Positions 4,150-20,000 of a stretch of 20,000 nt of DNA are shown here, in pieces; positions within the stretch are counted from its first letter, which is position 1, and every line of letters starts with the position of its first letter. Below the pieces are notes generated by a model, which was not told where the DNA came from, searched no databases, and saw only the letters and a program-made list of their open reading frames with translations. The translations under genes and the position numbers were made by a program. Source of the DNA: an uncultured virus (IMG/VR IMGVR_UViG_3300022516_000001). Lineage: Duplodnaviria; Heunggongvirae; Uroviricota; Caudoviricetes. The stretch is from the IMG/VR virus record IMGVR_UViG_3300022516_000001, one strand, 5' to 3'.

Positions 4150-4163
4150 ATAAAGTCTTTATT

Positions 4164-4445: not shown

Positions 4446-4470
4446 TTAAATTTAATTTTTTTTCGTAATA

Positions 4471-4504
4471 TTGCATTGTTATTTACAATTTTTGTATATC
4501 TTTG
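4471..4504 (+). promoter_or_regulatory. Bacteroidota-type promoter
   Basis: TTGC at 4471, TATCTTTG at 4497-4504. Confidence 0.6.
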
Positions 4505-4540
4505 TATCATTAATTATAAAAAATAAGTTGAAATAATAAT

Positions 4541-4759
4541 ATGAGTTTTAAAGGTAAAATATATAAGCAATGTCCTGAATGTGAAGGTTATGGCAAAAAA
4601 ATAAATTACTTTGATTTACCAAACCCAATAGATATTGGAATAATCTCATTACATATAATGGAGATAAAAACTGAAAGAAAAACAAAAGCGGGAAGAAATT
4701 ATTTAGAAAAAGAATTATGTGAAATGTGTGATGGTGTTGGAATGTGTTGGCAATTTTAA
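4541..4759 (+). CDS. Small zinc-finger protein with DnaJ-type CxxCxGxG pair
   Basis: CPECEGYG and CEMCDGVG in 72 aa. Confidence 0.75.
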   Translation: MSFKGKIYKQCPECEGYGKKINYFDLPNPIDIGIISLHIMEIKTERKTKAGRNYLEKELCEMCDGVGMCWQF

Positions 4760-4784
4760 TAATAAGCTATAATTAAAAAATAAT

Positions 4785-5354: not shown

Positions 5355-5355
5355 T

Positions 5356-5943: not shown

Positions 5944-5962
5944 AAAAAGATTTTAAAAAATT

Positions 5963-6337
5963 ATGAAATATCCATTTGAATTTAGTGAATTATTATTAAC
6001 TGATATACTTCTTAAAGAATTTGGATTTATAAATTGGTCTGATGATTGTGGAGATTCTAATCATTCTTCAATAACACTTGCAAGAGTAAAAATTGAAATT
6101 CATAAAACAGATGAATTAAGTGATGGCGGTGTAGGAAGTTATGCAAAACCAGAATATTCTTCTGCTCATTTTACTAATAAAGATTTTCATCCAATGTATT
6201 TTCTTCATGATTTATATGAATATATTATATCATTTAATAATGAAGAAGTTATTTTAGAATTTTTAGAATTATGTAAAAAAAATAATACATATGTTTATAT
6301 TGAATCATATATTAATTATATGACAACAAAAAAATAA
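5963..6337 (+). CDS. Hypothetical protein
   Basis: 124 aa ORF, AAAAAATTATG leader. Confidence 0.7.
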   Translation: MKYPFEFSELLLTDILLKEFGFINWSDDCGDSNHSSITLARVKIEIHKTDELSDGGVGSYAKPEYSSAHFTNKDFHPMYFLHDLYEYIISFNNEEVILEFLELCKKNNTYVYIESYINYMTTKK

Positions 6338-6362
6338 CCTTTAAAGCAGATTCAAATGAAAA

Positions 6363-6860
6363 GTGAAGAAAAAATTAACAAAATTTAATAATTTATCTCA
6401 TAGAGATTTATGTGTTAAAGCTGCTAAATATCTTAGATATACTGGAATTCATTCATTTCATAAATGTCAATATGTTGTATGTGAATTAGACCGTGTTGGT
6501 GAATGTCCAGATGCATTTGGAATTTCAAGTCGTTCAACACAATTAATTGAAGTTAAAATGTCTCGTTCTGATTTTCTTGTAGATAAGAAAAAATATTGGC
6601 GAAAATATCCTGAACTAGGACTAGGCGAATTTAGAAGTTATATGTGTCCAATTGGAATTATAAAAGAAAATGATTTACCTGAAAAATGGGGACTTCTTTA
6701 TGTCTCAAATGAAGGTAAAATAACTATAATTAAAAATCCTGAAATACAATCTAATAACTATAAAGAAGAACGTTGTATTTTATTATCTCTTTTAAGAAGA
6801 GAGGGTATTATGCCTAGAGTTTTTAGTTATAGGAAATATAAAATAGATATTGTTTCTTAA
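6363..6860 (+). CDS. MmcB-like PD-(D/E)XK nuclease
   Basis: ECPDAFG ... LIEVKMSRSDFLVDKKK ... DLPEKWGLL; GTG start uncertain. Confidence 0.7.
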   Translation: MKKKLTKFNNLSHRDLCVKAAKYLRYTGIHSFHKCQYVVCELDRVGECPDAFGISSRSTQLIEVKMSRSDFLVDKKKYWRKYPELGLGEFRSYMCPIGIIKENDLPEKWGLLYVSNEGKITIIKNPEIQSNNYKEERCILLSLLRREGIMPRVFSYRKYKIDIVS

Positions 6861-6872
6861 AAGAATTATTAA

Positions 6873-7718
6873 TTATAATTTAATTATATACCAATCCTTA
6901 TACTTTCCTTTATTAATTTTTATATTATATTTGTACGTATTACAAAAAGATTCTCTAGGTAATTTTAACTTTTTTAATTCTTTTTTAATATTACTTTTGA
7001 ATTTATAAATTAATTCATTATTTTGATTATAAATTTCATAATTATTAGAATGTGCCATACTCATTTTCTGTTTAGCTTCTTCAGAAAATTTTTTTCCTAA
7101 TTGAGCAATACTCATTTTTTTCTTAATTTCATCACTAAATTTCATTCCCAAGTTTCTACCCTTACTTGCGATACACATTTTTAATATTGATTCTTTAGTA
7201 TGTTTTTTTCCTAACTGAGCCATTCTCATTTTTTGTTTGGTTTCATCAGAACGTTTTTGTCCTCTATTTTTATTAGCAACCAATAATATACTTTCTTTTG
7301 TGTGTTTTCTACCCTTACTTGCAATACTTAATTTTTGTTTGGTTTCATCAGAATGATGTTTACCCAACCAATATTTATTATCTTTCATAAATATACGCAT
7401 TCTTTCCCTAAATTTTTCATTAAATTTAAAATGGTCACCACCATCTGTTAAATTCATACCATTTTTAGTGTCAAAACAATTAAATTGTTTAATATAATAT
7501 TTTTCTAATTCATTAAGTTTCGATTCTTCGCATTCACAAATTATTTCAAATTCATGGGCATTCCAACCATATTTTATGATTGAATTATATAATTTAGGTT
7601 GTCTTTTACATTTTGTACTTTTATATGAATTTAATCTACGATTTATATCAACAGACTGACCAATATAAATCTTTCCAGTAGGTGAAGTTATTTTATAAAT
7701 TCCGCATATTTTATTCAT
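6873..7718 (-). CDS. Free-standing GIY-YIG homing endonuclease with NUMOD3 repeats (copy 1)
   Basis: CGIYKITSPTGKIYIGQS, catalytic RR...LEKYYI...GMN; about six GKKHSxETKxKMS-type repeats; C-terminal NUMOD1-like tail. Confidence 0.93.
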   Translation of the reverse strand: MNKICGIYKITSPTGKIYIGQSVDINRRLNSYKSTKCKRQPKLYNSIIKYGWNAHEFEIICECEESKLNELEKYYIKQFNCFDTKNGMNLTDGGDHFKFNEKFRERMRIFMKDNKYWLGKHHSDETKQKLSIASKGRKHTKESILLVANKNRGQKRSDETKQKMRMAQLGKKHTKESILKMCIASKGRNLGMKFSDEIKKKMSIAQLGKKFSEEAKQKMSMAHSNNYEIYNQNNELIYKFKSNIKKELKKLKLPRESFCNTYKYNIKINKGKYKDWYIIKL

Positions 7719-7863
7719 TATTTAAATTATTTTTCATATCTTTGGTTATTAAATCTAAAATTAGTTGTGTAACGGTAGTAAATTCAGTCTTAGCTTTCTT
7801 TCTAAGATATACTAATTGTTTAGAATGAATTCTGAATGTGTAAAAAATTTTATTTTCTTTCAT
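7711..7863 (-). CDS. 50-aa ribbon-helix-helix-like DNA-binding protein (not in ORF track)
   Basis: MKENKIFYTFRIHSKQLVYLRKKAKTEFTTVTQLILDLITKDMKNNLNNE; alternating beta strand YTFRI followed by two helices; stop overlaps endonuclease ATG (ATGAATAA); paralog at 12296-12448. Confidence 0.8.
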   Translation of the reverse strand: MKENKIFYTFRIHSKQLVYLRKKAKTEFTTVTQLILDLITKDMKNNLNNE

Positions 7864-7867
7864 ATTG

Positions 7868-7900
7868 TCTACATATTATGTAGATAAATACTGTATTTAT
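7868..7900 (-). promoter_or_regulatory. Putative operator palindrome plus GTATTTAT promoter motif
   Basis: TCTACATA-T-TATGTAGA (7868-7884) and ATAAATAC-T-GTATTTAT (7884-7900), both perfect inverted repeats. Confidence 0.5.
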
Positions 7901-7930
7901 TTAAAAAATTTCTATATTTGTAAAAAATAA

Positions 7931-7962
7931 TTGCGTTAAAAGAAAAATAATAATTATCTTTG
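7931..7962 (+). promoter_or_regulatory. Bacteroidota-type promoter
   Basis: TTGC at 7931, TATCTTTG at 7955-7962, 20 nt before ATG 7983. Confidence 0.65.
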
Positions 7963-7982
7963 TATTATAAATTATAAAAATT

Positions 7983-8546
7983 ATGAAAGATAAAACAATT
8001 TGGAATTACTTTAATGAAAGTATTGACTATCCATCAGAAGTGGCACATAATCCAATTCCTTATGGAACTATTTGGTGTTATATATCTTCAACATTTTTAA
8101 ATGAATTTATTAATTATGTTAATCCGATTAAGTGTTATTTAATCGATAGATATACACCAGATGATGAAAAAGTCGATGATAATCATACAAAAGGTGAATT
8201 AAAAGATAAAATTTTATTAGGTAAAAACGAAATGTTTCATACTGAATTAAATTGTTTTAGAGATGATATTGTTATTCTTGCTGAAATTGAAGCAGAAAAT
8301 TATGATTCTAATAATAAACCAAATAAATTTATGTTTTTTTATTTCGATGAAGATGTTTCGGATTGTTGTGTTGGTAAATTTAAAACTAATGATTCAAAAG
8401 AAGAAGTTATTCAATCAATAATTAATTGGTTAGAAAGAGAAAAATTAAATAATATAGGTGAAATAGTTAAAGAACATACTGAGAGTGGAATTATTAATTA
8501 TATTGAACTTCCATTATCTTTTATTAATGGTTGGGTTAAATTTTAA
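7983..8546 (+). CDS. Hypothetical protein
   Basis: 187 aa acidic ORF with promoter and A-rich leader. Confidence 0.75.
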   Translation: MKDKTIWNYFNESIDYPSEVAHNPIPYGTIWCYISSTFLNEFINYVNPIKCYLIDRYTPDDEKVDDNHTKGELKDKILLGKNEMFHTELNCFRDDIVILAEIEAENYDSNNKPNKFMFFYFDEDVSDCCVGKFKTNDSKEEVIQSIINWLEREKLNNIGEIVKEHTESGIINYIELPLSFINGWVKF

Positions 8547-8549
8547 TTT

Positions 8550-9143
8550 ATGAATAAGCCTATATTTAATAATGTTCCTAATGAACATCTAATAATTAAA
8601 CATAAATCAAATCAAGGTATTATAAATCTTGATTATTGGATAAGTAGGTCTATTGCAACAGTTGGAGTTGTATTAATTATTCCATTAGTTGGTGGAATGC
8701 ATGTACTTATTACCCAAAGGTCAAATAAAATGCGTGATGAAAAAAATAAATATTGCTTACCGTATGGTTATGTTGACTTTAATGAAAATATTTTTGAATC
8801 AATGATAAGAGAAGTATATGAAGAAACCAGTTTATATCTTCCAGATTATAATGACTTACTAATCACAAATAATAATGAAAAACCTATAGAAATCAGAGAT
8901 AATCCGGGCAATCATCGCCAAAATGTTTCATTTATATATCTTTCAGTATATGATTTTCATGAACATCTTGAAAGACTTCCAATTTATGTTGAAAATTATT
9001 CAAATAATGAAACAAAATTAGCTCAATGGATATCAATTTCAGATTTTTATTGTAAATATGATAAAAAACTTAATTGGGCATTTAATCATAATGAAACAAT
9101 AAAAAAAGCAATCGAATTTTATCAAAGTAATTATATAAAATGA
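8550..9143 (+). CDS. Nudix hydrolase
   Basis: Nudix box GYVDFNENIFESMIREVYEETSL; VLITQRS, QNVS, WAFNH. Confidence 0.9.
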   Translation: MNKPIFNNVPNEHLIIKHKSNQGIINLDYWISRSIATVGVVLIIPLVGGMHVLITQRSNKMRDEKNKYCLPYGYVDFNENIFESMIREVYEETSLYLPDYNDLLITNNNEKPIEIRDNPGNHRQNVSFIYLSVYDFHEHLERLPIYVENYSNNETKLAQWISISDFYCKYDKKLNWAFNHNETIKKAIEFYQSNYIK

Positions 9144-9150
9144 TTGAAAT

Positions 9151-9318
9151 ATGAAAATACATTATGCTACTGCAATAAATGGAAATGAAAGTGATACAGA
9201 AACTTATTATTCGTTAACAGCTTGTGGAATGGAATTTTATGAAGAATGGACATCTATTAAAGAAGCCGTAACATGTAAAAAGTGTTTAAAAAAATTAAAA
9301 ATTACATCTGAAAATTAA
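9151..9318 (+). CDS. 55-aa His/Cys zinc-binding protein (not in ORF track)
   Basis: MKIHYA...TACG...VTCKKCLKK; fills the gap between neighbouring genes. Confidence 0.7.
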   Translation: MKIHYATAINGNESDTETYYSLTACGMEFYEEWTSIKEAVTCKKCLKKLKITSEN

Positions 9319-9328
9319 TAGTTAAAAT

Positions 9329-9739
9329 ATGAAAAGCAATGAAAAATTATTAAATGAAGCATATCAAAGACTTTGGGATGCAATGAATGAATTAAAAATA
9401 ATTTTAATTAAAAAAGAAACAATAAAAGAATTTCCAATAACTGAAAAAACTTTATTATCTTTAGGTTTTGAAAGAGAAGATGTTTCTGCAGAAGAATCTG
9501 GAAACACACCTTATTATTATTTTGTATATAATCTAAAAAATGAAAGAGCAATACTGATTTCATGTGCAAATGATGAATGTAAAGATAATACTGATAGTGA
9601 TGTTTATGACCATATTGATTATGATAGTAGATGTAATAATTATACTGTTGAATTCTTTAATGAAGAAGATGCTGGATATATCGATAATGCAAATGTATTG
9701 GAAAGTTTAATTAGTGCTTTAAAATGTCTTAAAAAATAA
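9329..9739 (+). CDS. Hypothetical protein
   Basis: 136 aa; PITEKTLLSLGF motif. Confidence 0.7.
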   Translation: MKSNEKLLNEAYQRLWDAMNELKIILIKKETIKEFPITEKTLLSLGFEREDVSAEESGNTPYYYFVYNLKNERAILISCANDECKDNTDSDVYDHIDYDSRCNNYTVEFFNEEDAGYIDNANVLESLISALKCLKK

Positions 9740-9742
9740 AGA

Positions 9743-9985
9743 ATGGAATATACAATTAAAATAGAAGAATTAATTAAAAAACCAATCATTAGAAACGATA
9801 AATTTCCAGATTTCTTAAATAAAATGACAGATGAAGAAATCAAACAATTTGAAAAAGAAGTTGCATATAATTTATCAGAAGATAATATTGAACCAAAATT
9901 TCCTGATTGGAATGCAGCATTTATGGCAAAAATAATAGATAGACATATTTTATATAATTTATTTAGTTTAGCTAATACAAAATGA
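9743..9985 (+). CDS. Hypothetical protein
   Basis: 80 aa; ATGA overlap with the helicase start. Confidence 0.7.
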   Translation: MEYTIKIEELIKKPIIRNDKFPDFLNKMTDEEIKQFEKEVAYNLSEDNIEPKFPDWNAAFMAKIIDRHILYNLFSLANTK

Positions 9986-11469
9986 GTAAAGAATTGATAA
10001 CTAATGATGATATTTTTAGTTTTTTAAATGAAGACGAAGAAGAAACAGTAGCTGATAATGAACTAATTCTTCCAAATGGTAAAAAAATTGTATTTAATGA
10101 CCAACAATTTGAAGCTATTCAAAGAATTAAGAAATGGCTAAAAGAAAAGGATAAAACATTTTTTACTCTTGAAGGACCTGCTGGTAGTGGAAAATCAACA
10201 ATTATAAAGAAAATATTAGATGATTATCGATATGGTGTTGTAGTATCAGCACCCACGCATAAGGCGACCAGAATCATTCAAAATATTACCGAAAAAGAAT
10301 CCAAAACCCTTCACTCACTTTTAGGTTTACGTCCGGATTTGGATTTAGAAAATTTTTCACCGAACTTCCCTCAATTTAATCCAATCGCTTTACCACGTAT
10401 TACATTTTATAGCCTTGTAATTTTGGATGAAAGTTCAATGGTAAATCAAGACCTTTTTAATTTAATTAAAGAAAAAACAAAAGATAGTCGAACAAAGGTA
10501 TTATTCGTAGGAGACCCACATCAGCTACCTCCGATAAATGAAAAAGAATCTGCAGTTTTTATTCAAGAAGATATTGAAAAATATATTCTCACTGAAATTA
10601 TGAGACAAGCTGACACAAATCCCATATTATTGATTGCAGATATCATAAGAAATAATTTAACGAGTATTGATGCTGGTAATTTTTCAAGAAAAACTAATAT
10701 TAATATAAATGGTGAGGGCATTATATTTACTATAGATAAAAGAGAATTCAGAAAAATGGTTTTGGAAAAATTCACATCTGAAGAATTTAATAAAGACATA
10801 AATTTTTGTCGAGGAATTGCTTGGAAAAATGAAACTGTAATGCAATCAAATAATGTTGTTAGAACCGCAATTTTTGGAAATAAAGCAGATATTATTGAAG
10901 TGAATGATGTTATTTGCGGATATCGAACAATCACAAATGATAGACAAAATCAAATAATTATTCAAAATTCTGCTGATTATCGAGTTATTGAAAAGTCTGG
11001 TTTAGAAGAAAATTCTTATGGAATTAGTGGGTATCCCGTTAAAATTCGTGAAGACCTTCCCAAAGGTAAATTTAAATTCGAAGACGTTTTTATTATTAAT
11101 ACGAATAACCACAAAAATTTACATTTATATGCACAAATGCACGATTTTTTTAAAGATTGTGCAAAATCAAATAAGAAGATGTGGAATAAATATTATGAAT
11201 TCAGGCGTAATAATTTATTAATGAAAAATATTGATAAATATCAAAATGGTAGACTTAGAAATAGTGGTGAAGTTATTGTCAAGGACCTAGATTATGGCTA
11301 TTTTTTAACTTGTCATAAAGTGCAAGGGTCTACATATCAGCATGTTACAATCATCTTAAGCGATTTTGAAGAAAATTGGGTGTTACGTGAAAAAAATCAA
11401 TTGTTTTATACTGCCCTTACAAGACCCGAATTAACTGCAACCATATTATGTAATAAAATTGATGAATAA
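9982..11469 (+). CDS. dda: Dda/RecD-like SF1B DNA helicase
   Basis: GPAGSGKS, APTHKA, TLHSLLG, DESSMV, GDPHQLPP, IMRQ, TCHKVQGSTY, YTALTR. Confidence 0.92.
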   Translation: MSKELITNDDIFSFLNEDEEETVADNELILPNGKKIVFNDQQFEAIQRIKKWLKEKDKTFFTLEGPAGSGKSTIIKKILDDYRYGVVVSAPTHKATRIIQNITEKESKTLHSLLGLRPDLDLENFSPNFPQFNPIALPRITFYSLVILDESSMVNQDLFNLIKEKTKDSRTKVLFVGDPHQLPPINEKESAVFIQEDIEKYILTEIMRQADTNPILLIADIIRNNLTSIDAGNFSRKTNININGEGIIFTIDKREFRKMVLEKFTSEEFNKDINFCRGIAWKNETVMQSNNVVRTAIFGNKADIIEVNDVICGYRTITNDRQNQIIIQNSADYRVIEKSGLEENSYGISGYPVKIREDLPKGKFKFEDVFIINTNNHKNLHLYAQMHDFFKDCAKSNKKMWNKYYEFRRNNLLMKNIDKYQNGRLRNSGEVIVKDLDYGYFLTCHKVQGSTYQHVTIILSDFEENWVLREKNQLFYTALTRPELTATILCNKIDE

Positions 11470-12303
11470 TTATAGTTTGATAATATACCAATCCTTATAT
11501 TTACCATTTTTTATTTTTTCATTTCTTCTATATGTTTCACAAAAACGTTCACGAGGTAAATTTAATTTCTTTAATTCCAATCTAATGGTATTTCTGAATT
11601 TATGAACCAATTCATTATTTTGGTTATAAATTTCATAATTATTCTTATGAATTTCACTTAATTTTTGTTTGGTTTCTTCAGAATGTTTTTTACCTAGCCA
11701 TATTTTATTTCCTAATTTTGATTTTCTTATTTTTTCTTTTGTTATGTCTGAACGTTTTTTTCCTGTATTAACAATTCTTAGTTTTTCTTTTGTTTCATTA
11801 GATGGTTTTTTATTTAATTTTATTATTCTCATCTTTTCAATACTTTCTTTAGTGTGTTTTTTACCTAAATGAAATTTTCTTAAACTTGATTTATGTTCTT
11901 TAGATATTTTTTTCCATTTATGAATTTTACTAAATTTATCTCTAGTTTCTTGTGAAACAATTCTATTCTTAGAACTATCACTAATTTTTCGTAATGATTC
12001 TTTTGAAAGTTTTATGTGGTCACCACCACTTGTTAAATTCATTCCATGTTTTGTATCAAATGTATCGTAAAACTTTATATAATATTTTTCCAAATAATTT
12101 AATTCTGGTTCTGTGCATTCATGAATTACCTCAAATTTATGCATATTCCAACCATATTTATTAATTGAACGATATATTAATAATTGTTCATAACATCTAT
12201 TATTAATATAATCATTCAATCTTCGTTTTATATTTCTCGATTGCCCGATATAAATTTTACCCGATGGTGACGTTATTTTATAAATTCCACATATTTTATT
12301 CAT
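11470..12303 (-). CDS. Free-standing GIY-YIG homing endonuclease with NUMOD3 repeats (copy 2)
   Basis: CGIYKITSPSGKIYIGQS; NUMOD3 repeats; same GKYKDWYIIKL C-terminus as copy 1; stop directly abuts the dda stop. Confidence 0.93.
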   Translation of the reverse strand: MNKICGIYKITSPSGKIYIGQSRNIKRRLNDYINNRCYEQLLIYRSINKYGWNMHKFEVIHECTEPELNYLEKYYIKFYDTFDTKHGMNLTSGGDHIKLSKESLRKISDSSKNRIVSQETRDKFSKIHKWKKISKEHKSSLRKFHLGKKHTKESIEKMRIIKLNKKPSNETKEKLRIVNTGKKRSDITKEKIRKSKLGNKIWLGKKHSEETKQKLSEIHKNNYEIYNQNNELVHKFRNTIRLELKKLNLPRERFCETYRRNEKIKNGKYKDWYIIKL

Positions 12304-12448
12304 ATTTTATATCACTTTTCATTTTTTGATTTACTAAGTCCAAAATTAATTGTGTAACTGTAGTAAAGTTATTTTTTGCAGTATCACGTAAATACTTCAG
12401 TTGTTCTGACGGTATTCTTAATGAATACATTTCTTTATTTGCTTTCAT
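12296..12448 (-). CDS. 50-aa ribbon-helix-helix-like DNA-binding protein (copy 2)
   Basis: MKANKEMYSLRIPSEQLKYLRDTAKNNFTTVTQLILDLVNQKMKSDIKYE; same length and same 8-nt overlap as 7711-7863. Confidence 0.8.
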   Translation of the reverse strand: MKANKEMYSLRIPSEQLKYLRDTAKNNFTTVTQLILDLVNQKMKSDIKYE

Positions 12449-12450
12449 GG

Positions 12451-12493
12451 TATATATATTGTATAGATAAATACAAATTAGTTTTGGAAAAGT
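12451..12493 (-). promoter_or_regulatory. GTATTTAT promoter motif with imperfect palindrome
   Basis: Minus strand reads ACTTTTCCAAAACTAATTTGTATTTATCTATACAATATATATA before ATG 12448. Confidence 0.5.
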
Positions 12494-12504
12494 ATTGTAA
12501 TTAT

Positions 12505-12531
12505 GCAACAATTTAAATAATTTTTCGTAAT
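12505..12531 (+). promoter_or_regulatory. ECF-sigma-like promoter GCAAC-N16-CGTA
   Basis: GCAAC 12505-12509, CGTAAT from 12526; same spacing as at 18753 and 19545. Confidence 0.45.
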
Positions 12532-12557
12532 ATTGTATAATATTTAATATTTTCGAT

Positions 12558-12848
12558 ATGGAAACTCAATTTAACGGAAATTTTGGTTTATTTAAGATTG
12601 ATAAGATTGTAAAAAGAAACAATTTTTATGAAATTAGATTTCAGAATACCAATAAAAGACTTGCTTGTGTTAATCTACATAGTTTTGTTGATAACAATAG
12701 CATTGCTAAATCTGTGATTGATTTAAAATCCGGTGATGAAATTTGGATTGACATATCGGCATATACCGCAGATAAATCATTATATAATCATAATCCGTTT
12801 GGAAGTGTTGGTACGTATAAAAGAGCAGTAAAATATAACAAAAATTGA
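12558..12848 (+). CDS. Hypothetical protein
   Basis: 96 aa ORF. Confidence 0.7.
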   Translation: METQFNGNFGLFKIDKIVKRNNFYEIRFQNTNKRLACVNLHSFVDNNSIAKSVIDLKSGDEIWIDISAYTADKSLYNHNPFGSVGTYKRAVKYNKN

Positions 12849-13030
12849 TGAATAACATAGCATTATATTTAAATGAAAAACAATATATTTTTCTGGAAAA
12901 AATGGGATTTGATAGAAGGATTATTAATATCTTAATATCTAAATATGATAAAGATAAATTTGATTCTTTTTCAAAAAAAATTAATGAAATTATAATAATG
13001 GAAGAAGATATACGAAAACTATTAAAATAG
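12848..13030 (+). CDS. Hypothetical protein
   Basis: TGATG coupling with the upstream gene; 60 aa. Confidence 0.6.
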   Translation: MNNIALYLNEKQYIFLEKMGFDRRIINILISKYDKDKFDSFSKKINEIIIMEEDIRKLLK

Positions 13031-13036
13031 ATTAAA

Positions 13037-13561
13037 ATGGAACGAATAACGGATAAATACGTATTTTTTTATAAGTCCAGAATATCAAATTGGCATATAT
13101 GTCAATTTAAATATAAAGGAATTACTTTTTTTAACACAGAACAAGCATTCATGTGGGAAAAAGCTGTTTTCTTTGGTGATATGGAAACAGCAAAAAAAAT
13201 AGTTGAAACACCAGAACCAAGAGAAAATAAAGCATTGGGTCGTATGGTTAAAAATTTTAATACTGAAAAATGGATGATTGCTTGTTTTGATATAATGGTA
13301 GCTGTTAATTATGCTAAATTTAGTCAAGATAAACGCTCAAAAGAATTACTATTATCAACTAGTGATAAAATATTGGTTGAAACAAATCCAAATGATTCTG
13401 TATGGGGAATTGGATTGCATTGGAGTAATGATGATGTGCTTGATGAAACTAAATGGCAAGGTATGAATCTTTTAGGCAAAGCGTTAATGGAAGTACGGAA
13501 ACAAGTAAAACAAGAAAAAAATGAAATCGGAAACTCTCAAAATAATATGGAAAATAATTAG
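13037..13561 (+). CDS. NADAR (YbiA-like) family protein
   Basis: SNWH, TEQAFMWEKAVFFGD, KALGRMVKNF, AKFSQ, LVETNPNDSVWGIG, WQGMNLLGKALMEVR. Confidence 0.93.
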   Translation: MERITDKYVFFYKSRISNWHICQFKYKGITFFNTEQAFMWEKAVFFGDMETAKKIVETPEPRENKALGRMVKNFNTEKWMIACFDIMVAVNYAKFSQDKRSKELLLSTSDKILVETNPNDSVWGIGLHWSNDDVLDETKWQGMNLLGKALMEVRKQVKQEKNEIGNSQNNMENN

Positions 13562-13787
13562 AAAAGCAACACCAAAAGTAAGAATAAAAAAAACATATTA
13601 TTCATATATTGCAGAAAATGAAAAACATAAGCATAAATTAAAAGCATTTGAAGGTTCTGTTTTATTTGAAATGTTAGAAAAAACTGTTGTTTCATCTAAA
13701 ACAAGATATGAAAAATTTATTCTTGTTGATGGTATCTATAGTAATAATAATAAATTAATATATGTGACAAATTTTAGAATAATGTAA
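13521..13787 (+). CDS. Hypothetical protein
   Basis: 88 aa basic ORF overlapping the NADAR 3' end by 41 nt. Confidence 0.55.
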   Translation: MKSETLKIIWKIIRKATPKVRIKKTYYSYIAENEKHKHKLKAFEGSVLFEMLEKTVVSSKTRYEKFILVDGIYSNNNKLIYVTNFRIM

Positions 13788-13868
13788 CAAAGATATACTA
13801 TTGAAACTTCATGTGGTCGAAACGAAATACAGCGTCTGGAAATCTGAATTGTTGTTCACTGCATGAAG
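13786..13868 (+). ncRNA. Degenerate type I hammerhead-ribozyme-like element with loop II pseudoknot
   Basis: CTATTGA (consensus CTGANGA), stem II AACT/GGTC, GAAA, stem III ACG/CGT, C; stem I AACAA-AGAT / ATCT-TTGTT; CTTCATG (13807-13813) complementary to CATGAAG (13862-13868). Confidence 0.4.
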
Positions 13869-13938
13869 CAATAATCATAATGTACCAGAAGAAACTATTA
13901 ATAAGATGGTTAATCGTTTCGAAATAAAGTTGAAATAA
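13867..13938 (+). pseudogene. C-terminal remnant of AAA_33/N4BP2-like P-loop kinase
   Basis: SNNHNVPEETINKMVNRFEIKLK*; preceded by in-frame TGA; TAATG-coupled to the HD gene. Confidence 0.6.
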
Positions 13939-14495
13939 TGAACGAATTAATTAAAAATATCGTGAAACCTGAAAACGGCATCGAGATTGCAATAATCTCT
14001 GATGCTGTTTTTATTCAAGGTGCAAATCATGGTCGCCCAAGAAGTGGACATCCAGAAGGTCAGGTTATTTATCATATTAAAGAAGTATTAGAAAACATTG
14101 ATAAATTTTATGCTGATGATGAAGACCGTCAGGATTTACGTTTAATTGCAATAGTTCACGATACTTTTAAACATAAAGTTGACAATACAAAACCAAAAGT
14201 GGGTGATAATCATCATGGTAAAATTGCCGAAATATTTGCTGAAAAATATTGCAATAATACTAAAATACTTCAAGTTATTCAATCACATGATGAAGCATAT
14301 AATGCATGGTCACAAGGTGGAAGACATGGCGATTGGTATAAGGCAAAAAGACGTGCTGAAAAACTTATTGGTGATTTAAATTTACTTGATTGTTTAGACC
14401 TTTATATAAAATTTTATCGTTGTGATAATGCAACAGGTGATAAATCAAATGAAAGTTATGAATGGTTTAAAAAACTAATTGAAGAGAAATGTTAA
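13938..14495 (+). CDS. HD-domain phosphohydrolase
   Basis: HPEGQVIYH, AIVHDTFK, NHHG, IQSHD, CD. Confidence 0.85.
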   Translation: MNELIKNIVKPENGIEIAIISDAVFIQGANHGRPRSGHPEGQVIYHIKEVLENIDKFYADDEDRQDLRLIAIVHDTFKHKVDNTKPKVGDNHHGKIAEIFAEKYCNNTKILQVIQSHDEAYNAWSQGGRHGDWYKAKRRAEKLIGDLNLLDCLDLYIKFYRCDNATGDKSNESYEWFKKLIEEKC

Positions 14496-15052
14496 TAATT
14501 TATTTAATAATAATTGCGTTATTACTAATAAGTGTTTTTATTTTTTTCTATGGTAGAATTAAAAAAATAATCACTTCAATTATTAATAAAAGAATTTATA
14601 AAAAATATTCTATTGGTTCATATGTATTATCGGATTATGAAAAAAAATTAATTATTAAAAACAGAAATATTTTATCAGAAAATCGTGTATCAATTAATAA
14701 AATCAGATTTGTATTTACTCCCATATTTCAATATGATATTGAAACAGATATTATAAATCCACGATATGATGTAATGATACCAATGCTTGGTGGATATGTA
14801 GATAAAAAATCACCAATCATCAGTGTTAATAAACCACATCATTTACTTAGTATTATAACAAAATTTTGGCAAAATAATGATAATTTTGCCAATTTAAAAC
14901 GAATATTAAAACATTGTAAAAAAGGTGTTGTTATTATGATTGCCAATAAAGAATGTTATGAATATAATGTTGATGATGAATATATTCAAATGGCAATTTT
15001 AGATGATGAAATTGAAAAGTATAATCAAAATAATGAAAATTATGGAAACTAA
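14489..15052 (+). CDS. Hypothetical protein with N-terminal TM anchor
   Basis: MLIIYLIIIALLLISVFIFFY hydrophobic start. Confidence 0.7.
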   Translation: MLIIYLIIIALLLISVFIFFYGRIKKIITSIINKRIYKKYSIGSYVLSDYEKKLIIKNRNILSENRVSINKIRFVFTPIFQYDIETDIINPRYDVMIPMLGGYVDKKSPIISVNKPHHLLSIITKFWQNNDNFANLKRILKHCKKGVVIMIANKECYEYNVDDEYIQMAILDDEIEKYNQNNENYGN

Positions 15053-15332
15053 AAATTTATCATTATCCGAGCCAAAAATAGAAATTGATAATGTACCACT
15101 TGCAGAAGTTGAATTTACTAACGATTTCAGACCAAAATGTGGTAAGATTCAATATCCCTCATTTAGGGATGCTCAAGAAGCTATTAATTCTGGTAAAAAA
15201 CATAGAAGATATCTTCATGGTCAAAGAATGAATAGAAGAATGGGAAAAAAAGATATACGACCCGTAAGAAGCTATAAATGTGATGAATGTGGTTTTTGGC
15301 ATTTAACAAGTCATCCTGATTATAATGAATAA
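15042..15332 (+). CDS. Small phage zinc-finger protein
   Basis: CGKIQYPS...RSYKCDECGFWHLTS; start at ATG 15042 preferred because it gives a short overlap. Confidence 0.75.
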   Translation: METKNLSLSEPKIEIDNVPLAEVEFTNDFRPKCGKIQYPSFRDAQEAINSGKKHRRYLHGQRMNRRMGKKDIRPVRSYKCDECGFWHLTSHPDYNE

Positions 15333-15344
15333 TATAAAGATTCA

Positions 15345-15490
15345 TATTCCCTTAATATAATGCATATGGACTACCTAAAATAATTAGGCTTCTTAACTTA
15401 TGCTAAGAATTTTGGACGTTTCATCGATTGTGCCCGTTATAACAGGTCTTATTTGGTCTCCACGTCTGTTATCGTCAGTCCCTGACGATT
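15345..15490 (-). ncRNA. Probable TnpB omegaRNA (reRNA) with flanking guide; boundaries approximate
   Basis: Relatively GC-rich 3' end of tnpB running into the terminal hairpin; by family knowledge the guide is the flank beyond ~15366 (ATGCATTATATTAAGG...). Confidence 0.5.
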
Positions 15491-16694
15491 TGTTATTGTC
15501 AATATTATTTGTTAAATCATTAAGTAATATTTTCTGACCTTCTTTTAATATGTTTTTTGCAGCATTTATATCCCTATCATGAACAATACCACATTTAGGA
15601 CACTTCCATTCTCTAATAGAAAGATTTAAGTCTTGATTTATATAGCCACAAATATGACATGTTTTACTTGAAGGATAAAATCTATTAATTTTAACAATTT
15701 GTTTATCATTCCAATTGGCTTTATAATTAAGCATTTCAACAAAAGTACCCCAACTAGCATTTGATATAGATTTATTAAGTCCTGATTTTGCTGATTGACC
15801 ATTGGATAAATACTTACCATTTTTGTCTTGTTTTGGCTTGCATCTTGTTGACATACCTTTAATATTAAGGTCTTCTAAACAAATTATGTCATATTTTTTA
15901 ATTAGGTCAGTACTTACTTTATGTAGATTATCTACACGAGAATTGGTTATCTTCTTGTATATTTTAACCACTTTCAATCTTTGTTGTTCAAATTTTTTCG
16001 AATTTTTTGTTTTTTTTGATAAATGTTGTTGTGCTTTTTTTAATTTCTTTTCATATTGTTTAGTATATTTATTGTTTTTATATTTAAATCCTTCTGATGT
16101 TATTGCAAAATCTTTTAATCCCAAATCTATTCCAATACTTTTATTAGTTTTAGGTAATTTAACATGTTCGGTTTCAACTAAAATACTAACAAAATATTCA
16201 TTAGTTGGTGTTTTGGTTATTGTGCATTGTTTTATAATTCCCTTAAATTTCCTATCAATAATAACACCAATTCCTCCTTTAAATTTACGTATATATAGTT
16301 TATTATTAATTAATTTTACTGCTTGAGGAACGCAAAAACTATTTTTATTGTGTTTAGATTTAAAATTTGGAAACTTTGTCCTACCTTTAAAAAATCCATT
16401 ATATGCTCCATCAAGATGTTTAAGAGACTGTTGTAAAGATTGTGCACAAATTTCATTAAGCCAAATATATTCATTTGAATGCTTTAATTCGGTTAATGCT
16501 TTTGTATTATCATAATAATTAAGTGTTTGATTATTAGTTTCATATTCTTTTTTACGTTCATTGAGAAAATAATTATAAATAAATCTAATACAGCCAAAAT
16601 GTTTATTTAATAAAATAATTTGGTTATTATCCGGTTTTAGTTTATATTTGTATAATTTTAACATTTATACTATTCTCTTATTTAGTATAAATAC
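15366..16694 (-). mobile_element. Non-autonomous IS200/IS605-family (IS1341-like) tnpB-only element
   Basis: tnpB plus right-end signature GAAGCCTAA-TTATT-TTAGGTAGTCCAT on the - strand; no tnpA; left boundary not defined. Confidence 0.7.
15393..16664 (-). CDS. tnpB: RNA-guided endonuclease TnpB
   Basis: HFGCIRFIYNYFL, FPNFKSK, RuvC D (GIDLGLK), E (CLEDLN), D (HDRDINAA), Zn ribbon CHICG/CPKCG. Confidence 0.96.
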   Translation of the reverse strand: MLKLYKYKLKPDNNQIILLNKHFGCIRFIYNYFLNERKKEYETNNQTLNYYDNTKALTELKHSNEYIWLNEICAQSLQQSLKHLDGAYNGFFKGRTKFPNFKSKHNKNSFCVPQAVKLINNKLYIRKFKGGIGVIIDRKFKGIIKQCTITKTPTNEYFVSILVETEHVKLPKTNKSIGIDLGLKDFAITSEGFKYKNNKYTKQYEKKLKKAQQHLSKKTKNSKKFEQQRLKVVKIYKKITNSRVDNLHKVSTDLIKKYDIICLEDLNIKGMSTRCKPKQDKNGKYLSNGQSAKSGLNKSISNASWGTFVEMLNYKANWNDKQIVKINRFYPSSKTCHICGYINQDLNLSIREWKCPKCGIVHDRDINAAKNILKEGQKILLNDLTNNIDNNKSSGTDDNRRGDQIRPVITGTIDETSKILSIS

Positions 16695-16713
16695 TTAAAT
16701 ATTTTGAAAAGTT
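16663..16713 (-). promoter_or_regulatory. GTATTTATA promoter motif and 10-bp inverted repeat at tnpB start
   Basis: Minus strand ACTTTTCAAAATATTTAAGTATTTATA; ATTTATACTA (16663-16672) / TAGTATAAAT (16683-16692). Confidence 0.5.
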
Positions 16714-16741
16714 ATTTATTTTATAAAAAAAATTTAGTAAT

Positions 16742-17104
16742 ATGAGTAGATTAAGAAATCAATATTTTATGTATGGTATTTTAGTTTCGTATAGCGAATA
16801 CAAAGAACGAAAAGAGAATCGATTAAAATATTCTAAATTTAATATTGCTAATTTTATTGATGAAGATACTATTGTTTTTAGTGATGGTGATATAATAAGT
16901 AATGAAATTCATGGTATTTTTACTGGTCGTGATGGTGAGTTTGTTATTGTAGGTAAAATGTTAAAAAGTATTGATAAGTATAATAAAGAACCACTTATTG
17001 TCCCGGAATTATCTCAAACCGATGAAATTATTGTCAGAACTTCAGTGGAAAATAGTTATGGTTTTAAAGGAGATTTTCATTATTATTTTGTGAACCACCC
17101 ATAA
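16742..17104 (+). CDS. Hypothetical protein
   Basis: 120 aa; last codons overlap an IS right-end remnant. Confidence 0.75.
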   Translation: MSRLRNQYFMYGILVSYSEYKERKENRLKYSKFNIANFIDEDTIVFSDGDIISNEIHGIFTGRDGEFVIVGKMLKSIDKYNKEPLIVPELSQTDEIIVRTSVENSYGFKGDFHYYFVNHP

Positions 17105-17123
17105 TTAGGTTACTTAATTTATG
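17090..17123 (-). mobile_element. Orphan IS200/IS605 tnpB right-end remnant
   Basis: Minus strand CATAAATTAAGTAACCTAATTATGGGTGGTTCAC; 27 of 34 aligned positions identical to 15366-15402; ends in canonical TCAC. Confidence 0.65.
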
Positions 17124-17164
17124 TTTCGAAAAAATTTAACTATTTTAAATAATAATTTTTCATT

Positions 17165-17557
17165 ATGCAAGTAAAACCACGATTCGAATTTTTTAAAATC
17201 ATTGAACAATATTTTATATTAAAAGATGATACTAATAATGATATTTGTTTAACACTTTTAGAAGTCAAATTACATGATAGTAAATTTGAAATAATGGAAT
17301 CTACATATAAATTTTGGACTATTGTTGGAAAAACACAAATATCTTGGGGTAATAAAAATAGTGATAAAACACCTATTTCATATGATGAAACTGCTTATTG
17401 GAAGTCTAAAGAAAGAAATAATTTATTTAAAGGTGAAATTCATGGATTTTTTATTGAAGAAATAAAAAATGGTTTTCATAATATGTTCTTAACAAAATTT
17501 CCTCCAGATGAACAAGAATTTGGACTAAGAACCCAATTTAATTTTAAAAAAATTTAA
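17165..17557 (+). CDS. Hypothetical protein
   Basis: 130 aa ORF. Confidence 0.7.
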   Translation: MQVKPRFEFFKIIEQYFILKDDTNNDICLTLLEVKLHDSKFEIMESTYKFWTIVGKTQISWGNKNSDKTPISYDETAYWKSKERNNLFKGEIHGFFIEEIKNGFHNMFLTKFPPDEQEFGLRTQFNFKKI

Positions 17558-17574
17558 ATAATTTTTTATTATTG

Positions 17575-17605
17575 TTGCATTTCTTTAAAAAATCAAATAT
17601 ATTTG
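17575..17605 (+). promoter_or_regulatory. Bacteroidota-type promoter
   Basis: TTGC at 17575, TATATTTG at 17598-17605. Confidence 0.65.
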
Positions 17606-17622
17606 TATTTAAATTAAAAATT

Positions 17623-17919
17623 ATGAAAAAATTTGAAGTAGAAGCAACTGGTCTAGTTTCTTTATTTATAGATAATGTAGAAGCTGAAAATAAAGAAATT
17701 GCCAATGGAAAAGTATTAGAATTACTTGGATGCGAACCTAATGAATTAGGTGGTTATTCTGTTACTTTTGAAAATATAAGACTTCCAAATGGAATTGTTT
17801 TAGATGAATTAAGTATGTGTTTTAAAACATTTGTAGAACCAAATGATATCGTTAAAGATTTAAATGAATGTTTTAATACTGACGAAATTGAAGAAAATGA
17901 CGAAGTGTCATACAATTAA
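17623..17919 (+). CDS. Hypothetical acidic protein
   Basis: Start moved to ATG 17623 (AAAAATTATG), downstream of the promoter. Confidence 0.7.
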   Translation: MKKFEVEATGLVSLFIDNVEAENKEIANGKVLELLGCEPNELGGYSVTFENIRLPNGIVLDELSMCFKTFVEPNDIVKDLNECFNTDEIEENDEVSYN

Positions 17920-17928
17920 AATAATAAT

Positions 17929-18129
17929 ATGAAAATAAAATTTGGCGATAAATTAAAATGTTTAAAAACAATATATAATATTTTTCAAATGCCATTATTT
18001 ATCGAAAATGACAATTATGAAGTATTAGGCATTGATGAAGATGATATAACATTAAATCATATATTATATGGTAATGAATATTGTAGTTATAATATAAACT
18101 TTATTTTAGAAAATTTTGAAAAACAATGA
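17929..18129 (+). CDS. Hypothetical protein
   Basis: 66 aa; KFGDKLKC start, FILENFEK end. Confidence 0.7.
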   Translation: MKIKFGDKLKCLKTIYNIFQMPLFIENDNYEVLGIDEDDITLNHILYGNEYCSYNINFILENFEKQ

Positions 18130-18181
18130 TTTAAAATAAATTATAAGTATTTAAAGAAAAATTAATTTAATTATTATTAAA

Positions 18182-18388
18182 ATGGAAATCGTAAAAGTTT
18201 ATTCGCCAATAGAAGATAAAAATATTCAAAAGAATCTTCAAAAATCAGAAATATGGACTAATGCCCATCATTTTGATGAGCTTACTGATACACAAATAAA
18301 ATATGGTAATATGTTTGAATACACCATAAAATTTGATGGATTACGACCAATAGTAGTCAATAAAGTAAGAAAATTACAAAACAAATAA
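18182..18388 (+). CDS. Hypothetical protein
   Basis: 68 aa ORF. Confidence 0.65.
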   Translation: MEIVKVYSPIEDKNIQKNLQKSEIWTNAHHFDELTDTQIKYGNMFEYTIKFDGLRPIVVNKVRKLQNK

Positions 18389-18428
18389 GTAATTATACTT
18401 TTAAACATACTATTTATAGTAAAATAAT

Positions 18429-18635
18429 ATGAAGATAATTCCATATAAAATGAAAGTGTTGAGGATTTTGATGTTCGCAATGTATTTCTTAATTTATGGA
18501 TACTCGATGTCAAAAACCACAATTGAACCAAACCGTCCTGTTTGGGGATATATATGCGCATTAGTATTTTTAATGTTATCTATATGGGGTATTGTAATTT
18601 TCATTAAAAATAATAAAGATAATGGAACTATTTAA
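18429..18635 (+). CDS. Small 2-TM membrane protein
   Basis: Two hydrophobic helices; TATTTATA at 18411-18418 upstream. Confidence 0.65.
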   Translation: MKIIPYKMKVLRILMFAMYFLIYGYSMSKTTIEPNRPVWGYICALVFLMLSIWGIVIFIKNNKDNGTI

Positions 18636-18747
18636 TTCTTTATATTTTTGTATTGGTGTTACTTTTGGTGCAGTTCTCATGTACTTATTAATTTTTATTG
18701 ATAAAATTTGGATTAAAATAATGAAGTTTTTTCATAAAAAACGTTAA
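18622..18747 (+). CDS. 41-aa single-TM protein (not in ORF track)
   Basis: MELFNSLYFCIGVTFGAVLMYLLIFIDKIWIKIMKFFHKKR. Confidence 0.55.
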   Translation: MELFNSLYFCIGVTFGAVLMYLLIFIDKIWIKIMKFFHKKR

Positions 18748-18748
18748 T

Positions 18749-18791
18749 TTTTGTAACAAAATGCTAATTAGAACGTATTAATGTAGTATTG
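18749..18791 (+). repeat. Direct repeat copy 1 containing ECF-like promoter GTAAC-N16-CGTA
   Basis: TTTTGTAACAAAATGCTAATTAGAACGTATTAATGTAGTATTG; identical to 19541-19582 except one extra T. Confidence 0.9.
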
Positions 18792-18812
18792 GTTATACAA
18801 AACAAATTTAAA

Positions 18813-19051
18813 ATGGACTTTAAAAACAAGTATCTGAACTGAAAATAGTAACAGCAACAAAGCCGAGAGTGTATTTACAATGGATTAATACTGAAAAAGG
18901 TAGAGATAAACACGATTGTTATGAAAGAATTGAAGATGTTTACACTAGATATGTAAATACATATAATCCATCAATGATAGTAATTCAAGGAAATAAGTTT
19001 TTTAAAGACCTTGAAGAAATGTATCAGAGTGCGTTGGCAAATGAACGCTAA
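18813..19051 (+). pseudogene. Cassette A ORF, probably frameshifted near its start (or GTG start at 18869)
   Basis: ATG 18813 has a typical leader but is out of frame; one extra A in TTTAAAAAC gives MDFKKQVSELKIV...ALANER; the stop TAA lies inside the attC-like TAAC. Confidence 0.5.
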
Positions 19052-19138
19052 CGGTTGTGTGTATGAAACGTTGCCACGCACGACACTTGATATAAGCCAG
19101 AAACCTTAATTGGCTATGTTTTATACACGTTGTTATAC
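19046..19138 (+). repeat. attC-like recombination hairpin 1
   Basis: CTAACG...GTGTATGAAACGTTGCCA / TGGCTATGTTTTATACAC...TGTTATAC. Confidence 0.75.
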
Positions 19139-19222
19139 ACAGTACGGTTTATTAAAGTAAAATGTTGATATGAAAAACGAACAAAAACTTTTTAAGAATA
19201 ATTATAAATAAAATTGAATATT

Positions 19223-19537
19223 ATGAAAAATGAAGTAAAAAATGGTAAATTAATTTTGGGAAGTTTTATTTTCAGAATAAATTTTAATGAAAATCCAACT
19301 CTTGTTATCGAAGAAAAAATAAATGATAATGGAACAAAACAATTTACAGGTAAATCAAAATGGAATCCATTTAAATTTATTGTCGTTGGTGAAAATAACA
19401 TTGAAGGAAAATATGAGTTATTTGATAGTGCTTTTATAATTCCAAATGATAATACTAATATATGGAAATTACATAAATGTCAAATTAATTTAAATTTTAA
19501 TGAAATTAATTTTGAACGTTGTGAACATATTAATTAA
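19223..19537 (+). CDS. Cassette B ORF, hypothetical protein
   Basis: 104 aa from ATG 19223; lies between hairpins 1 and 2. Confidence 0.7.
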   Translation: MKNEVKNGKLILGSFIFRINFNENPTLVIEEKINDNGTKQFTGKSKWNPFKFIVVGENNIEGKYELFDSAFIIPNDNTNIWKLHKCQINLNFNEINFERCEHIN

Positions 19538-19540
19538 AAA

Positions 19541-19582
19541 TTTTGTAACAAAATGCTAATTAGAACGTATAATGTAGTATTG
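19541..19582 (+). repeat. Direct repeat copy 2, fused to the left end of attC-like hairpin 2
   Basis: TTTTGTAACAAAATGCTAATTAGAACGTATAATGTAGTATTG. Confidence 0.9.
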
Positions 19583-19583
19583 T

Positions 19584-19674
19584 GTATAACGGTGGCGGTA
19601 TGAAACGTGCCGATGTAGAACGTTTCAAATTATACACAGGCTTGTCACGGCATGTTTTATACCGTGTGTTATAG
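19584..19674 (+). repeat. attC-like recombination hairpin 2
   Basis: ATAACG...CGGTATGAAACGTGCCG / CGGCATGTTTTATACCG...TGTTATAG. Confidence 0.8.
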
Positions 19675-19692
19675 CCAGTTAATTTTTAAATT

Positions 19693-19875
19693 ATGAAAAA
19701 AGTTTTTAATAGAGATGGTAAATATGTTGTAAGATTTGCTGCCGATGCAAAAGAGCAAATTCAAAAATGGCTTGGTGAAAACTGCCCTTATGATTTTGCT
19801 GTAAAATTTGCAAAAGAAGTCGATTGCCCTGTTTTCGGTAAAGCATTAGAGTTTCCTTGTGTGGTAGTTTTTTAA
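19693..19875 (+). CDS. Cassette C ORF, hypothetical protein
   Basis: 60 aa; fills the space between hairpins 2 and 3. Confidence 0.75.
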   Translation: MKKVFNRDGKYVVRFAADAKEQIQKWLGENCPYDFAVKFAKEVDCPVFGKALEFPCVVVF

Positions 19876-19879
19876 TTGG

Positions 19880-20000
19880 CTATAACGGCTGCGTGTAGCA
19901 TATCGTTGCGGATTTTGAAACACTAAGCTATCAAAACGAGATGAATTTAATTAGTAGCACAAATAATAAATAACCTGCTAACACCGCAATGGATGCTACA
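19880..20000 (+). repeat. attC-like recombination hairpin 3 (runs off window)
   Basis: ATAACG...TGTAGCATATCGTTGCGG / CCGCAATGGATGCTACA at the window end. Confidence 0.75.

Follow-up and report, generated by a model that had tools for sequence, protein, structure and literature searches.

Integrons are defined and detected through the integrase IntI, and consist of a tyrosine recombinase gene beside a primary recombination site, followed by an array of units that each carry a single open reading frame (ORF). Read along its bottom strand, a classical integron presents a hairpin, the cassette, AAC, attI and then the integrase gene in sense. Modules bounded by dif sites exist on Acinetobacter plasmids, and the promoter-stem-loop (PeSL) elements of T4-type phages are near-identical direct repeats that recombine homologously and for which circles have been proposed; shuffling of the PeSL modules by recombination between repeats has reportedly been suggested. 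Here, we describe a 4.2-kb cassette array in the ~350-kb genome of an uncultured virus of the Caudoviricetes (IMG/VR record IMGVR_UViG_3300022516_000001), the recombinase-distal end of which occupies the last 950 bases of the 20,000-nt stretch of DNA analyzed (hereafter, the window). The array probably represents an integron-like cassette platform within a phage that is run by a Xer/IntI-like recombinase. It would work like an integron but falls outside the integron family, and a literature search (supplements not included) retrieved no description of this system or of phage cassette platforms with their own enzyme.

In addition to the arrangement of recombinase gene, primary site and single-ORF units, the phage locus shares with integrons imperfect hairpins that are alike only in their AAC/GTT core and structure while varying in sequence and length, cassette ends that are permuted as for circles, and a putative exchange at AA|C of the better-folding strand. 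The order of elements on its + strand matches the bottom-strand order of the classical integron. Contrastingly, the phage enzyme is without the IntI insertion and does not reach the cut-off of the IntI model, the paired end region comprises ~14 bp with a conserved G:T pair instead of the 7-bp R box, the ORFs read towards the attI-like site and are each preceded rather than followed by their hairpin, and the host replicon is a phage. The layout of an integron is thus found around a Xer-like enzyme without the part that is held to enable hairpin recombination.

The archaeal XerA and bacterial XerC/D enzymes of the Xer/dif systems resemble the phage recombinase in being small and without an extra domain, and the closest solved relatives are found among them. 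However, Xer recombination uses one duplex site per replicon for dimer resolution, whereas the phage locus combines at least nine hairpin sites with one primary site and permutes cassettes. As in PeSL modules, small ORFs of a phage plastic region are bounded by stem-loops, but the hairpins described here are not near-identical; their sequences diverge around a fixed triplet, and they are linked to a recombinase. Integron fragments and attC clusters (CALINs) have been identified in 21 phages with canonical attC models and assayed with IntI1 (Qi et al., 2023, PMC9892861). According to the available text of that study, these attC-type sites occur in virulent phages, including a Polaribacter phage, as two or more sites with no phage-encoded partner enzyme, in contrast to the full platform with its own non-IntI recombinase described here; a Xer-type enzyme, Cellulophaga and Flavobacter are not mentioned in that text (PMC9892861). 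The notion of phage-borne sites for cassette recombination is common to that study and the present one. The available text of the IntegronFinder 2.0 paper reports one complete integron in Bacteroidetes.

The window corresponds to bases 4-20003, read on the minus strand, of a single virus record of 348,923 bp. This record is classified as linear in IMG/VR and has an estimated completeness of 100% (CheckV) and a GC content of 26%. Its + strand stops 3 nt short of the contig end and hairpin 3 runs off the window; the contig ends there because the assembly broke inside a duplicated 394-nt unit of the array. A further contig (L004) matches either end of the window's contig at 100% identity, agrees with the window without differences over 6.7 kb and bridges the two contig ends by 3,148 extra nt. 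The sequence-only reading, which recognized the integron-like array without database searches, had predicted that hairpin 3 would close with CG..TGTTA and that more cassettes would follow. On L004, hairpin 3 indeed closes 5 nt past the window end with ..GCTACACGTTGTTA (..CACGTTGTTA) and is followed by six more hairpins, resulting in nine cassettes arranged head to tail. Full copies of hairpin 3 are located at L004 6572-6697 and 9574-9699; the last hairpin of the array is an exact copy that precedes a copy of the following cassette, so that the 394-nt unit, consisting of hairpin 3 and a 66-aa membrane-protein cassette, is duplicated beside the recombinase gene. The array ends with ..CACCTAAC, which is joined directly and without a hairpin to TATAATATATAAAG. 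This hairpin-free attI-like site, TAAC|TATAATATATA (TAAC|TAT(T/A)ATATATA), lies 36 nt before the recombinase start codon. In Logan contigs (4 runs, 4 studies, dated 2018-2025) the array graph is the same, and the 394-nt piece has ~2x the flanking depth in 4/4. In one run (X8), a 2,668-nt middle piece was deeper (36.2) than its flanks (21-26), which could reflect extra copies or another strain, and nothing is concluded from it.

The eight distinct hairpins of the array align as one family with invariant TAACG and TGTTA, for which RNAalifold recovered 25 consensus pairs; compensatory changes occur in 15 of these. Columns are on average 57% identical and few are invariant, and the hairpins have in common only TAACG, TGTTA and a few stem bases, corresponding to 5-6 contiguous bases. 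Between AAC and GTT, each site comprises 5-6 unpaired bases followed by a stem that covaries and a loop that is variable and belongs to one of three size classes. The remainder of each unit is a small ORF flanked by a 14-nt arm and its complement. Beyond an asymmetric unpaired spacer (5-6 vs ~3 nt), the second stem of the site is formed by a conserved TATGAAACG opposite TGTTTTATA. A covariance model (R1) built from the eight hairpins scores hairpins 1 and 2, both of which were used in building it, at 91.6 and 88.4 bits on the + strand vs 19.0 and 27.0 bits on the - strand, respectively. Hairpin 1 is the first, recombinase-distal site of the array, and each of the three window hairpins directly follows a short + strand ORF (Table 1).

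A 269-aa tyrosine recombinase is encoded at the other end of the window's contig, following 160 nt in which the contig starts inside a small ORF. The earlier observation that no integrase is present therefore holds for the window but not for the contig, and the search for a tyrosine recombinase that it proposed yields a single enzyme without the IntI insertion at the array end. The protein contains a Phage_integrase domain (1.6e-35) and an N-terminal Phage_int_SAM_4 domain, and represents the only PF00589 match in the phage genome. It falls under every curated NCBIfam cut-off, with the best scores for XerA (167.9 bits, cut-off 220) followed by the integron integrase model TIGR02249 (152.9 bits, cut-off 265), and lower ones for XerD (135.1, cut-off 329.6), XerC (129.1, cut-off 335) and NF011946 (98.3, cut-off 435). 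Its closest solved relatives are archaeal XerA structures (4a8e, 5hxy; 123 bits), with which it aligns end to end and with the motifs of the catalytic region in register, whereas the alignment to VchIntIA (2a3v) splits in two, with 33 residues of the query (180-212) opposite 80 residues of the chain (181-260). Relatives with 38-41% identity were identified by protein search in cultured phages of Polaribacter and Cellulophaga, whereas a blastn search of window positions 17000-20000 against cultured phages returned no DNA relative.

The association of hairpins and recombinase is conserved among related viruses. A search of viral contigs with the recombinase protein retrieved 217 relatives, the best 80 of which were kept as loci. 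At E<=0.01, R1 identified 414 sites across the window, L003 and the 80 loci (82 sources); at E<=1e-6, it identified 222 sites in 56 non-redundant loci other than L004. All of the latter (222/222) are located on the strand of the recombinase gene, and 213 lie upstream of it (counted by reading the table). Likewise, an independent, cruder site scanner found 403 sites in 505 kb upstream vs 34 sites in 668 kb downstream. Among 150 sites from other loci, in an alignment that was fitted to R1, 97.7% of the cells are paired vs 69.6% in shuffled sites and at most 55% when the partner column is slid; 984 cells changed on both sides (vs 304) and 19 of the 25 pairs are compensatory. Two pairs are G:T in 146 and 148 of the 150 sites. 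Site lengths fall into three classes, the loops of which place the arms 40-200 nt apart. An attI-like junction, consisting of a variable arm followed by TAAC|TAttaTATATaaa, was located by a loose pattern search of the 140 nt upstream of the recombinase gene in 77/80 loci, in 68 distinct versions and at a median distance of 45 nt before codon 1. The longest ORF lies on the folding (recombinase) strand and reads towards the attI-like site in 273/288 cassettes.

The sequence-only reading had also pointed to bases on either side of each ORF that are complementary from one hairpin to the next. This is confirmed in the window, at 13/14 positions for unit 1 (19132-19145 vs 19577-19590) and 14/15 for unit 2 (arms in Table 1), the lone mismatch in either arm pair being a G after GTT that faces a T before AAC and thus forms a wobble on the + strand only. 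Across the related loci, T occupies arm position -8 in 89% and G arm position +8 in 66%, forming the same wobble. In the full array on L004, the 12 nt after the GTT of each hairpin match the complement of the 12 nt before the AAC of the next one at all nine junctions (10, 11, 9, 7, 10, 10, 11, 11 and 9 matches), whereas the two flanks of the same hairpin match at 2-6 of 12 positions only. In the arrays of other phages, L004 aside, 139 of 287 neighbouring pairs reach a complementarity of at least 7/9, compared with 2/376 for the flanks of the same hairpin and 53/5000 for random pairs.

Relatives of the array differ by whole cassettes at the conserved triplet, as anticipated for a mobile cassette system. 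Three loci from different samples (L045, L046 and L059) contain near-identical cassettes in different orders, and a cassette end (..TATAAC|) that precedes the attI-like core in L045 and L046 is found in identical form before a hairpin in L059. Furthermore, the ten Freya isolates of Polaribacter phages vary in genome length and in the distance of the integrase gene from the record start. The flanks of Freya_1 and Freya_10 are 99.9-100% identical, while Freya_10 contains 4,921 extra nt. This block starts directly after ..ACAAC with a hairpin (R1 35.6 bits, E 6.8e-6) and ends with ..GCTAAC before the same integrase-proximal core as in Freya_1. Isolates that differ by whole blocks at the site make the system accessible to bench study.

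On the + strand, exchange probably takes place at AA|C at the 5' foot of the hairpin, equivalent to G|TT on the minus strand. This is supported because the last array unit ends with AAC joined to the hairpin-free core, the duplicated 394-nt unit spans AAC to AAC, the ..TATAAC end adjoins either the attI-like core or a hairpin in L045/L046 and L059, and the Freya_10 block begins directly after AAC. The hairpin would therefore belong to the ORF that follows it. The split at G|TT originally suggested is retained as the minus-strand reading of AA|C but not at the + strand GTT of the 3' foot, and the units 19133-19668 and 19669 onward accordingly give way to those in Table 1. As the loci that are informative on the joint movement of hairpin and ORF reuse one hairpin type, the border was taken from the attI-like junctions, the duplication and the Freya block. 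One ORF of the array would start in the loop of its preceding hairpin, its true start being uncertain.

Table 1. Features of the cassette array and its left flank in the window (positions 1-20,000).
Feature	Position	Strand	Description
Tail copy	18746-18797	+	Directly repeats 19538-19588, the ~50-nt tail at the 3' end of cassette unit 1 (repeat families D2 and D13)
Left flanking ORF	18869-19051	+	60 aa; stop codon overlaps the TAAC of hairpin 1; no hairpin upstream
Hairpin site 1	19049-19135	+	TAACGG...TGTTA; AAC 19050, GTT 19132; 85 nt from AAC to GTT
Cassette unit 1 (putative borders)	19052-19589	+	C of AAC, hairpin 1, GTT, 14-nt arm, leader, 104-aa ORF (19223-19537), tail, 14-nt arm, AA
Hairpin site 2	19587-19671	+	AAC 19588, GTT 19668; 83 nt from AAC to GTT
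Cassette unit 2 (putative borders)	19590-19885	+	Hairpin 2 and 60-aa ORF (19693-19875); arms 19668-19682 and 19872-19886
Hairpin site 3, 5' part	19883-20000	+	AAC 19884; 124 nt in full; heads the 66-aa membrane-protein cassette

The recombinase itself presumably performs the exchange and excised circles presumably exist. Strands would be exchanged at AA|C either between a hairpin site and the site beside the recombinase's own gene or between two hairpin sites, and the unit would leave as a circle, in which its two arms and the hairpin could stack into one long stem. The circle would then re-enter next to the recombinase gene, as in integrons. We lean slightly towards the + strand reacting as a folded single strand, as opposed to Xer-like recombination of duplex DNA. 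The folded + strand would provide the core site, consisting of a 14-bp stem (both arms plus AAC/GTT), the unpaired spacer and the second conserved stem, with the first stem bordering on the exchange point. In models, the units fold better in excised form than in the array (mean -25.7 vs -17.3 kcal/mol), and the excised forms fold better on the + than on the - strand (-25.7 vs -20.2 kcal/mol), each in 9/9 units. This strand asymmetry, together with that of the R1 scores and of the conserved G:T pairs, is indirect evidence for a folded single strand.

Alternatively, the platform could be real while its sites recombine as duplex DNA in the manner of Xer/dif, each site having one arm on either side of a 6-8-bp central region. 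The symmetry of the hairpin would then reflect two inverted binding arms only and no folded single strand would be involved. The conserved parts do resemble two binding arms around the unpaired spacer, the attI-like site has no hairpin, and the enzyme is closest to XerA (123 bits, end to end) and without the IntI insertion. However, the stems covary while their sequences diverge (15/25 pairs in the array, 19/25 in the other loci), which indicates selection for pairing and not for a fixed binding sequence, and loops of three size classes separate the supposed arms by 40-200 nt. The asymmetry of the conserved G:T pairs additionally favours one strand, and all 222 sites have one polarity. We thus consider recombination of duplex sites rather unlikely.

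The hairpins could also be chiefly RNA elements of + strand transcripts, such as processing sites, stabilisers or attenuators located between the small genes, in which case the cassette pattern would result from ordinary phage mosaicism at these conserved sequences and the recombinase would serve lysogeny. Hairpins, ORFs and recombinase are all encoded on one strand, and the conserved G:U-type wobbles fit RNA. The paper describing the cultured Freya and Ingeline phages takes their integrase as a sign of a temperate lifestyle and, in its available text, mentions neither 'cassette' nor 'hairpin' (PMC8776804). Such a role leaves unexplained why bases pair across an ORF from one hairpin to the next, why the array has a fixed hairpin-free end ~45 nt before the recombinase gene and why the additional block of an isolate is bounded exactly by AAC. 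As the hairpins are in addition not terminator-like (no T run) and have no Rfam match, this explanation is very improbable. Shuffling by homologous or illegitimate recombination between repeated hairpins without involvement of the recombinase, for which the 394-nt direct repeat in the array and the 46-nt-class hairpin carried by most L045/L046/L059 junctions could be cited, is likewise very improbable. The array hairpins have only 5-6 contiguous bases in common and no other genome copies (blastn), and breakpoints coincide with AAC also in cases where the other partner, the attI-like core, has no homology. Nor would such shuffling explain why the sites in 56 loci are so closely linked to the recombinase and always have one polarity relative to it.

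Several observations nevertheless weigh against an integron-like platform acting on folded sites. Hairpin 1 folded alone as DNA is no more stable than its shuffled versions (z 0.14), and the best fold of hairpin 2 alone takes an alternative pairing; the single hairpins of the window are weaker evidence than their overall pattern. The conserved G:T wobbles would equally suit an RNA structure of the coding strand. The recombinase is without the IntI-specific insertion (I2 helix region) and below the IntI cut-off, while IntI is described, in the available text of the source, as having acquired single-strand recombination via the I2 helix (PMC7790495). The rearrangements among L045, L046 and L059 are mostly located at an identical repeated hairpin (46-nt class), so homologous recombination could explain several of them. 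Finally, no recombination event was detected in the window's phage itself, as the contigs of the 4 runs from 4 studies contain neither differences nor alternative joints; rare variants are lost from Logan contigs, and the source sample may be among these runs. Activity was not directly observed in the window's phage; the comparative evidence is strong.

Beyond viruses, bacterial relatives of the recombinase (L088-L167; 40-55% identity, mostly Bacteroidota) are also accompanied by hairpin sites of the array family, for example in L100, L120, L125, L150 and L159. The arrangement in these bacterial loci is opposite to that in the phages: 63 of 64 model matches are located on the strand opposite the recombinase gene, and 62 lie downstream of it. 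Many of the 15 bacterial loci inspected contain a TATATA(N4-5)GTTA(G/T)G-type junction ~90-110 nt after the stop codon, which is preceded by direct repeats in several loci. Cassette ends pair at 8/9 or better in 13/28 bacterial junctions vs 1/28 controls, and the ORFs are opposite in strand to the sites in 16/20 cassettes, which corresponds to the classical integron orientation. With the cultured relatives being phages of Flavobacteriia and counterparts present in Bacteroidota chromosomes, the proposal of a non-canonical, Bacteroidota-type system has found support.

We see about even chances that these loci together constitute a second integron-type gene-capture lineage. Such a lineage would use I2-less Xer-like recombinases and folded single-stranded hairpins exchanged at AA|C, would be common in Bacteroidota phages (from 40-kb siphoviruses to the 350-kb phage described here), where it would shuffle small ORFans that read towards the enzyme, and would also be present, with its genes arranged the other way round, on the chromosomes of Bacteroidota. 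In that case, recombination of hairpin sites would not require the I2 insertion, and current integron finders would miss a large part of cassette biology. Whether hairpin chemistry depends on the I2 domain could be addressed directly with the system, which might also account mechanistically for the rapid turnover of small ORFan genes in phage plastic regions.

The cassette ORFs of the array encode proteins of 60-169 aa. No Pfam or PHROG family was identified for the 8 cassette ORFs, including those of units 1 and 2, or for the 60-aa ORF flanking the array on the left, with the exception of the duplicated 66-aa membrane protein, which matches phrog_705 and phrog_2169. These ORFans are candidates for functions in host takeover or anti-defence. 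The proteins of two neighbouring cassettes (L004 7161-7250 and 7971-8060) are alike only in a ~30-aa N-terminal motif, MS..IR.MI.K.KNFKQFVNEN, which also starts cassette ORFs in three other phages (L054 5508-5588, L067 7937-8029 and L069 7857-7985). It is located 109-119 nt after GTT in two of these three phages and 318 nt after GTT in the third. In a search for cassette homologues in the other 79 loci, nothing but this motif recurred. Inspection by eye revealed a recurrent motif of the form (T)GATTTGAAACAC, both in the leader and tail of several cassettes (window 19146-19200 and 19538-19576) and inside the loops of the ~124-nt hairpins (L004 6600-6625 and 7763-7790); these loops therefore resemble the interior of a cassette without an ORF.

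In 11/80 viral loci (L007, L010, L011, L013, L015, L019, L023, L034, L036, L052 and L072) the contig stops at most 400 nt upstream of the recombinase start, compared with 3/80 at most 400 nt downstream, which fits repeats or population heterogeneity at the proximal end of the array. The array would account for the tendency of assemblies of these phages to end immediately upstream of the recombinase gene.

Other origins of the window hairpins were considered and rejected. As ARAGORN identified 0 tRNA genes in the window and the only Rfam match to its hairpins was a chance-level snoRNA match (E 2), they represent neither tRNAs nor a known RNA family. A genome-wide repeated element was dismissed on the basis of a blastn-short search of the three hairpins against the 349-kb genome, which returned only the hairpins themselves. 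Terminators were likewise ruled out, with a terminator scan yielding one small unrelated stem and the hairpins having no T run. Promoter-like sites numbered 10 vs 9.5 expected.

A further cassette at 18792-19050, to the left of hairpin 1, is not supported, as the region has no hairpin on its left, R1 found no further hairpin site upstream in the window (best 16.4 bits, E 0.13) and only the ~50-nt tail copy is present. The copy ends with GTATTGGTTATAC, while the tail of unit 1 ends with ..TGTATAAC instead, and the motif ATGTAGTATTG occurs exactly at 18781 and 19572 only. R1 had no match at the copy, which may be a decayed cassette border and not a hairpin site. The window also encodes a 423-aa TnpB-type RNA-guided endonuclease of an IS200/IS605-like element (15393-16664, - strand), which scores above the cut-off of NF040570 (328.7 bits) and matches the Pfam families OrfB_IS605 and Cas12f1-like TNB; it is located 2.4 kb from the array, and no relation to the array was seen. 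Furthermore, the N-terminus of a 277-aa ORF (11470-12303, - strand) resembles a GIY-YIG homing endonuclease, as judged from the motif by eye alone.

Hairpin sites also occur away from the arrays. In one viral locus (L074 18265-20385), five further hairpin sites form a second cluster, which lies on the recombinase strand 8-10 kb downstream of the gene. The genome of the window's phage also contains a solitary site of the array family (G000:C1:268567-268672, corresponding to L170 ~1505-1600; 68.3 bits), at a great distance from the array and inverted relative to it in the genome. A tRNA-like sequence immediately precedes this site, and a cassette-type leader (GTTAGGCACAGTACGG..) and a small ORF come after it.

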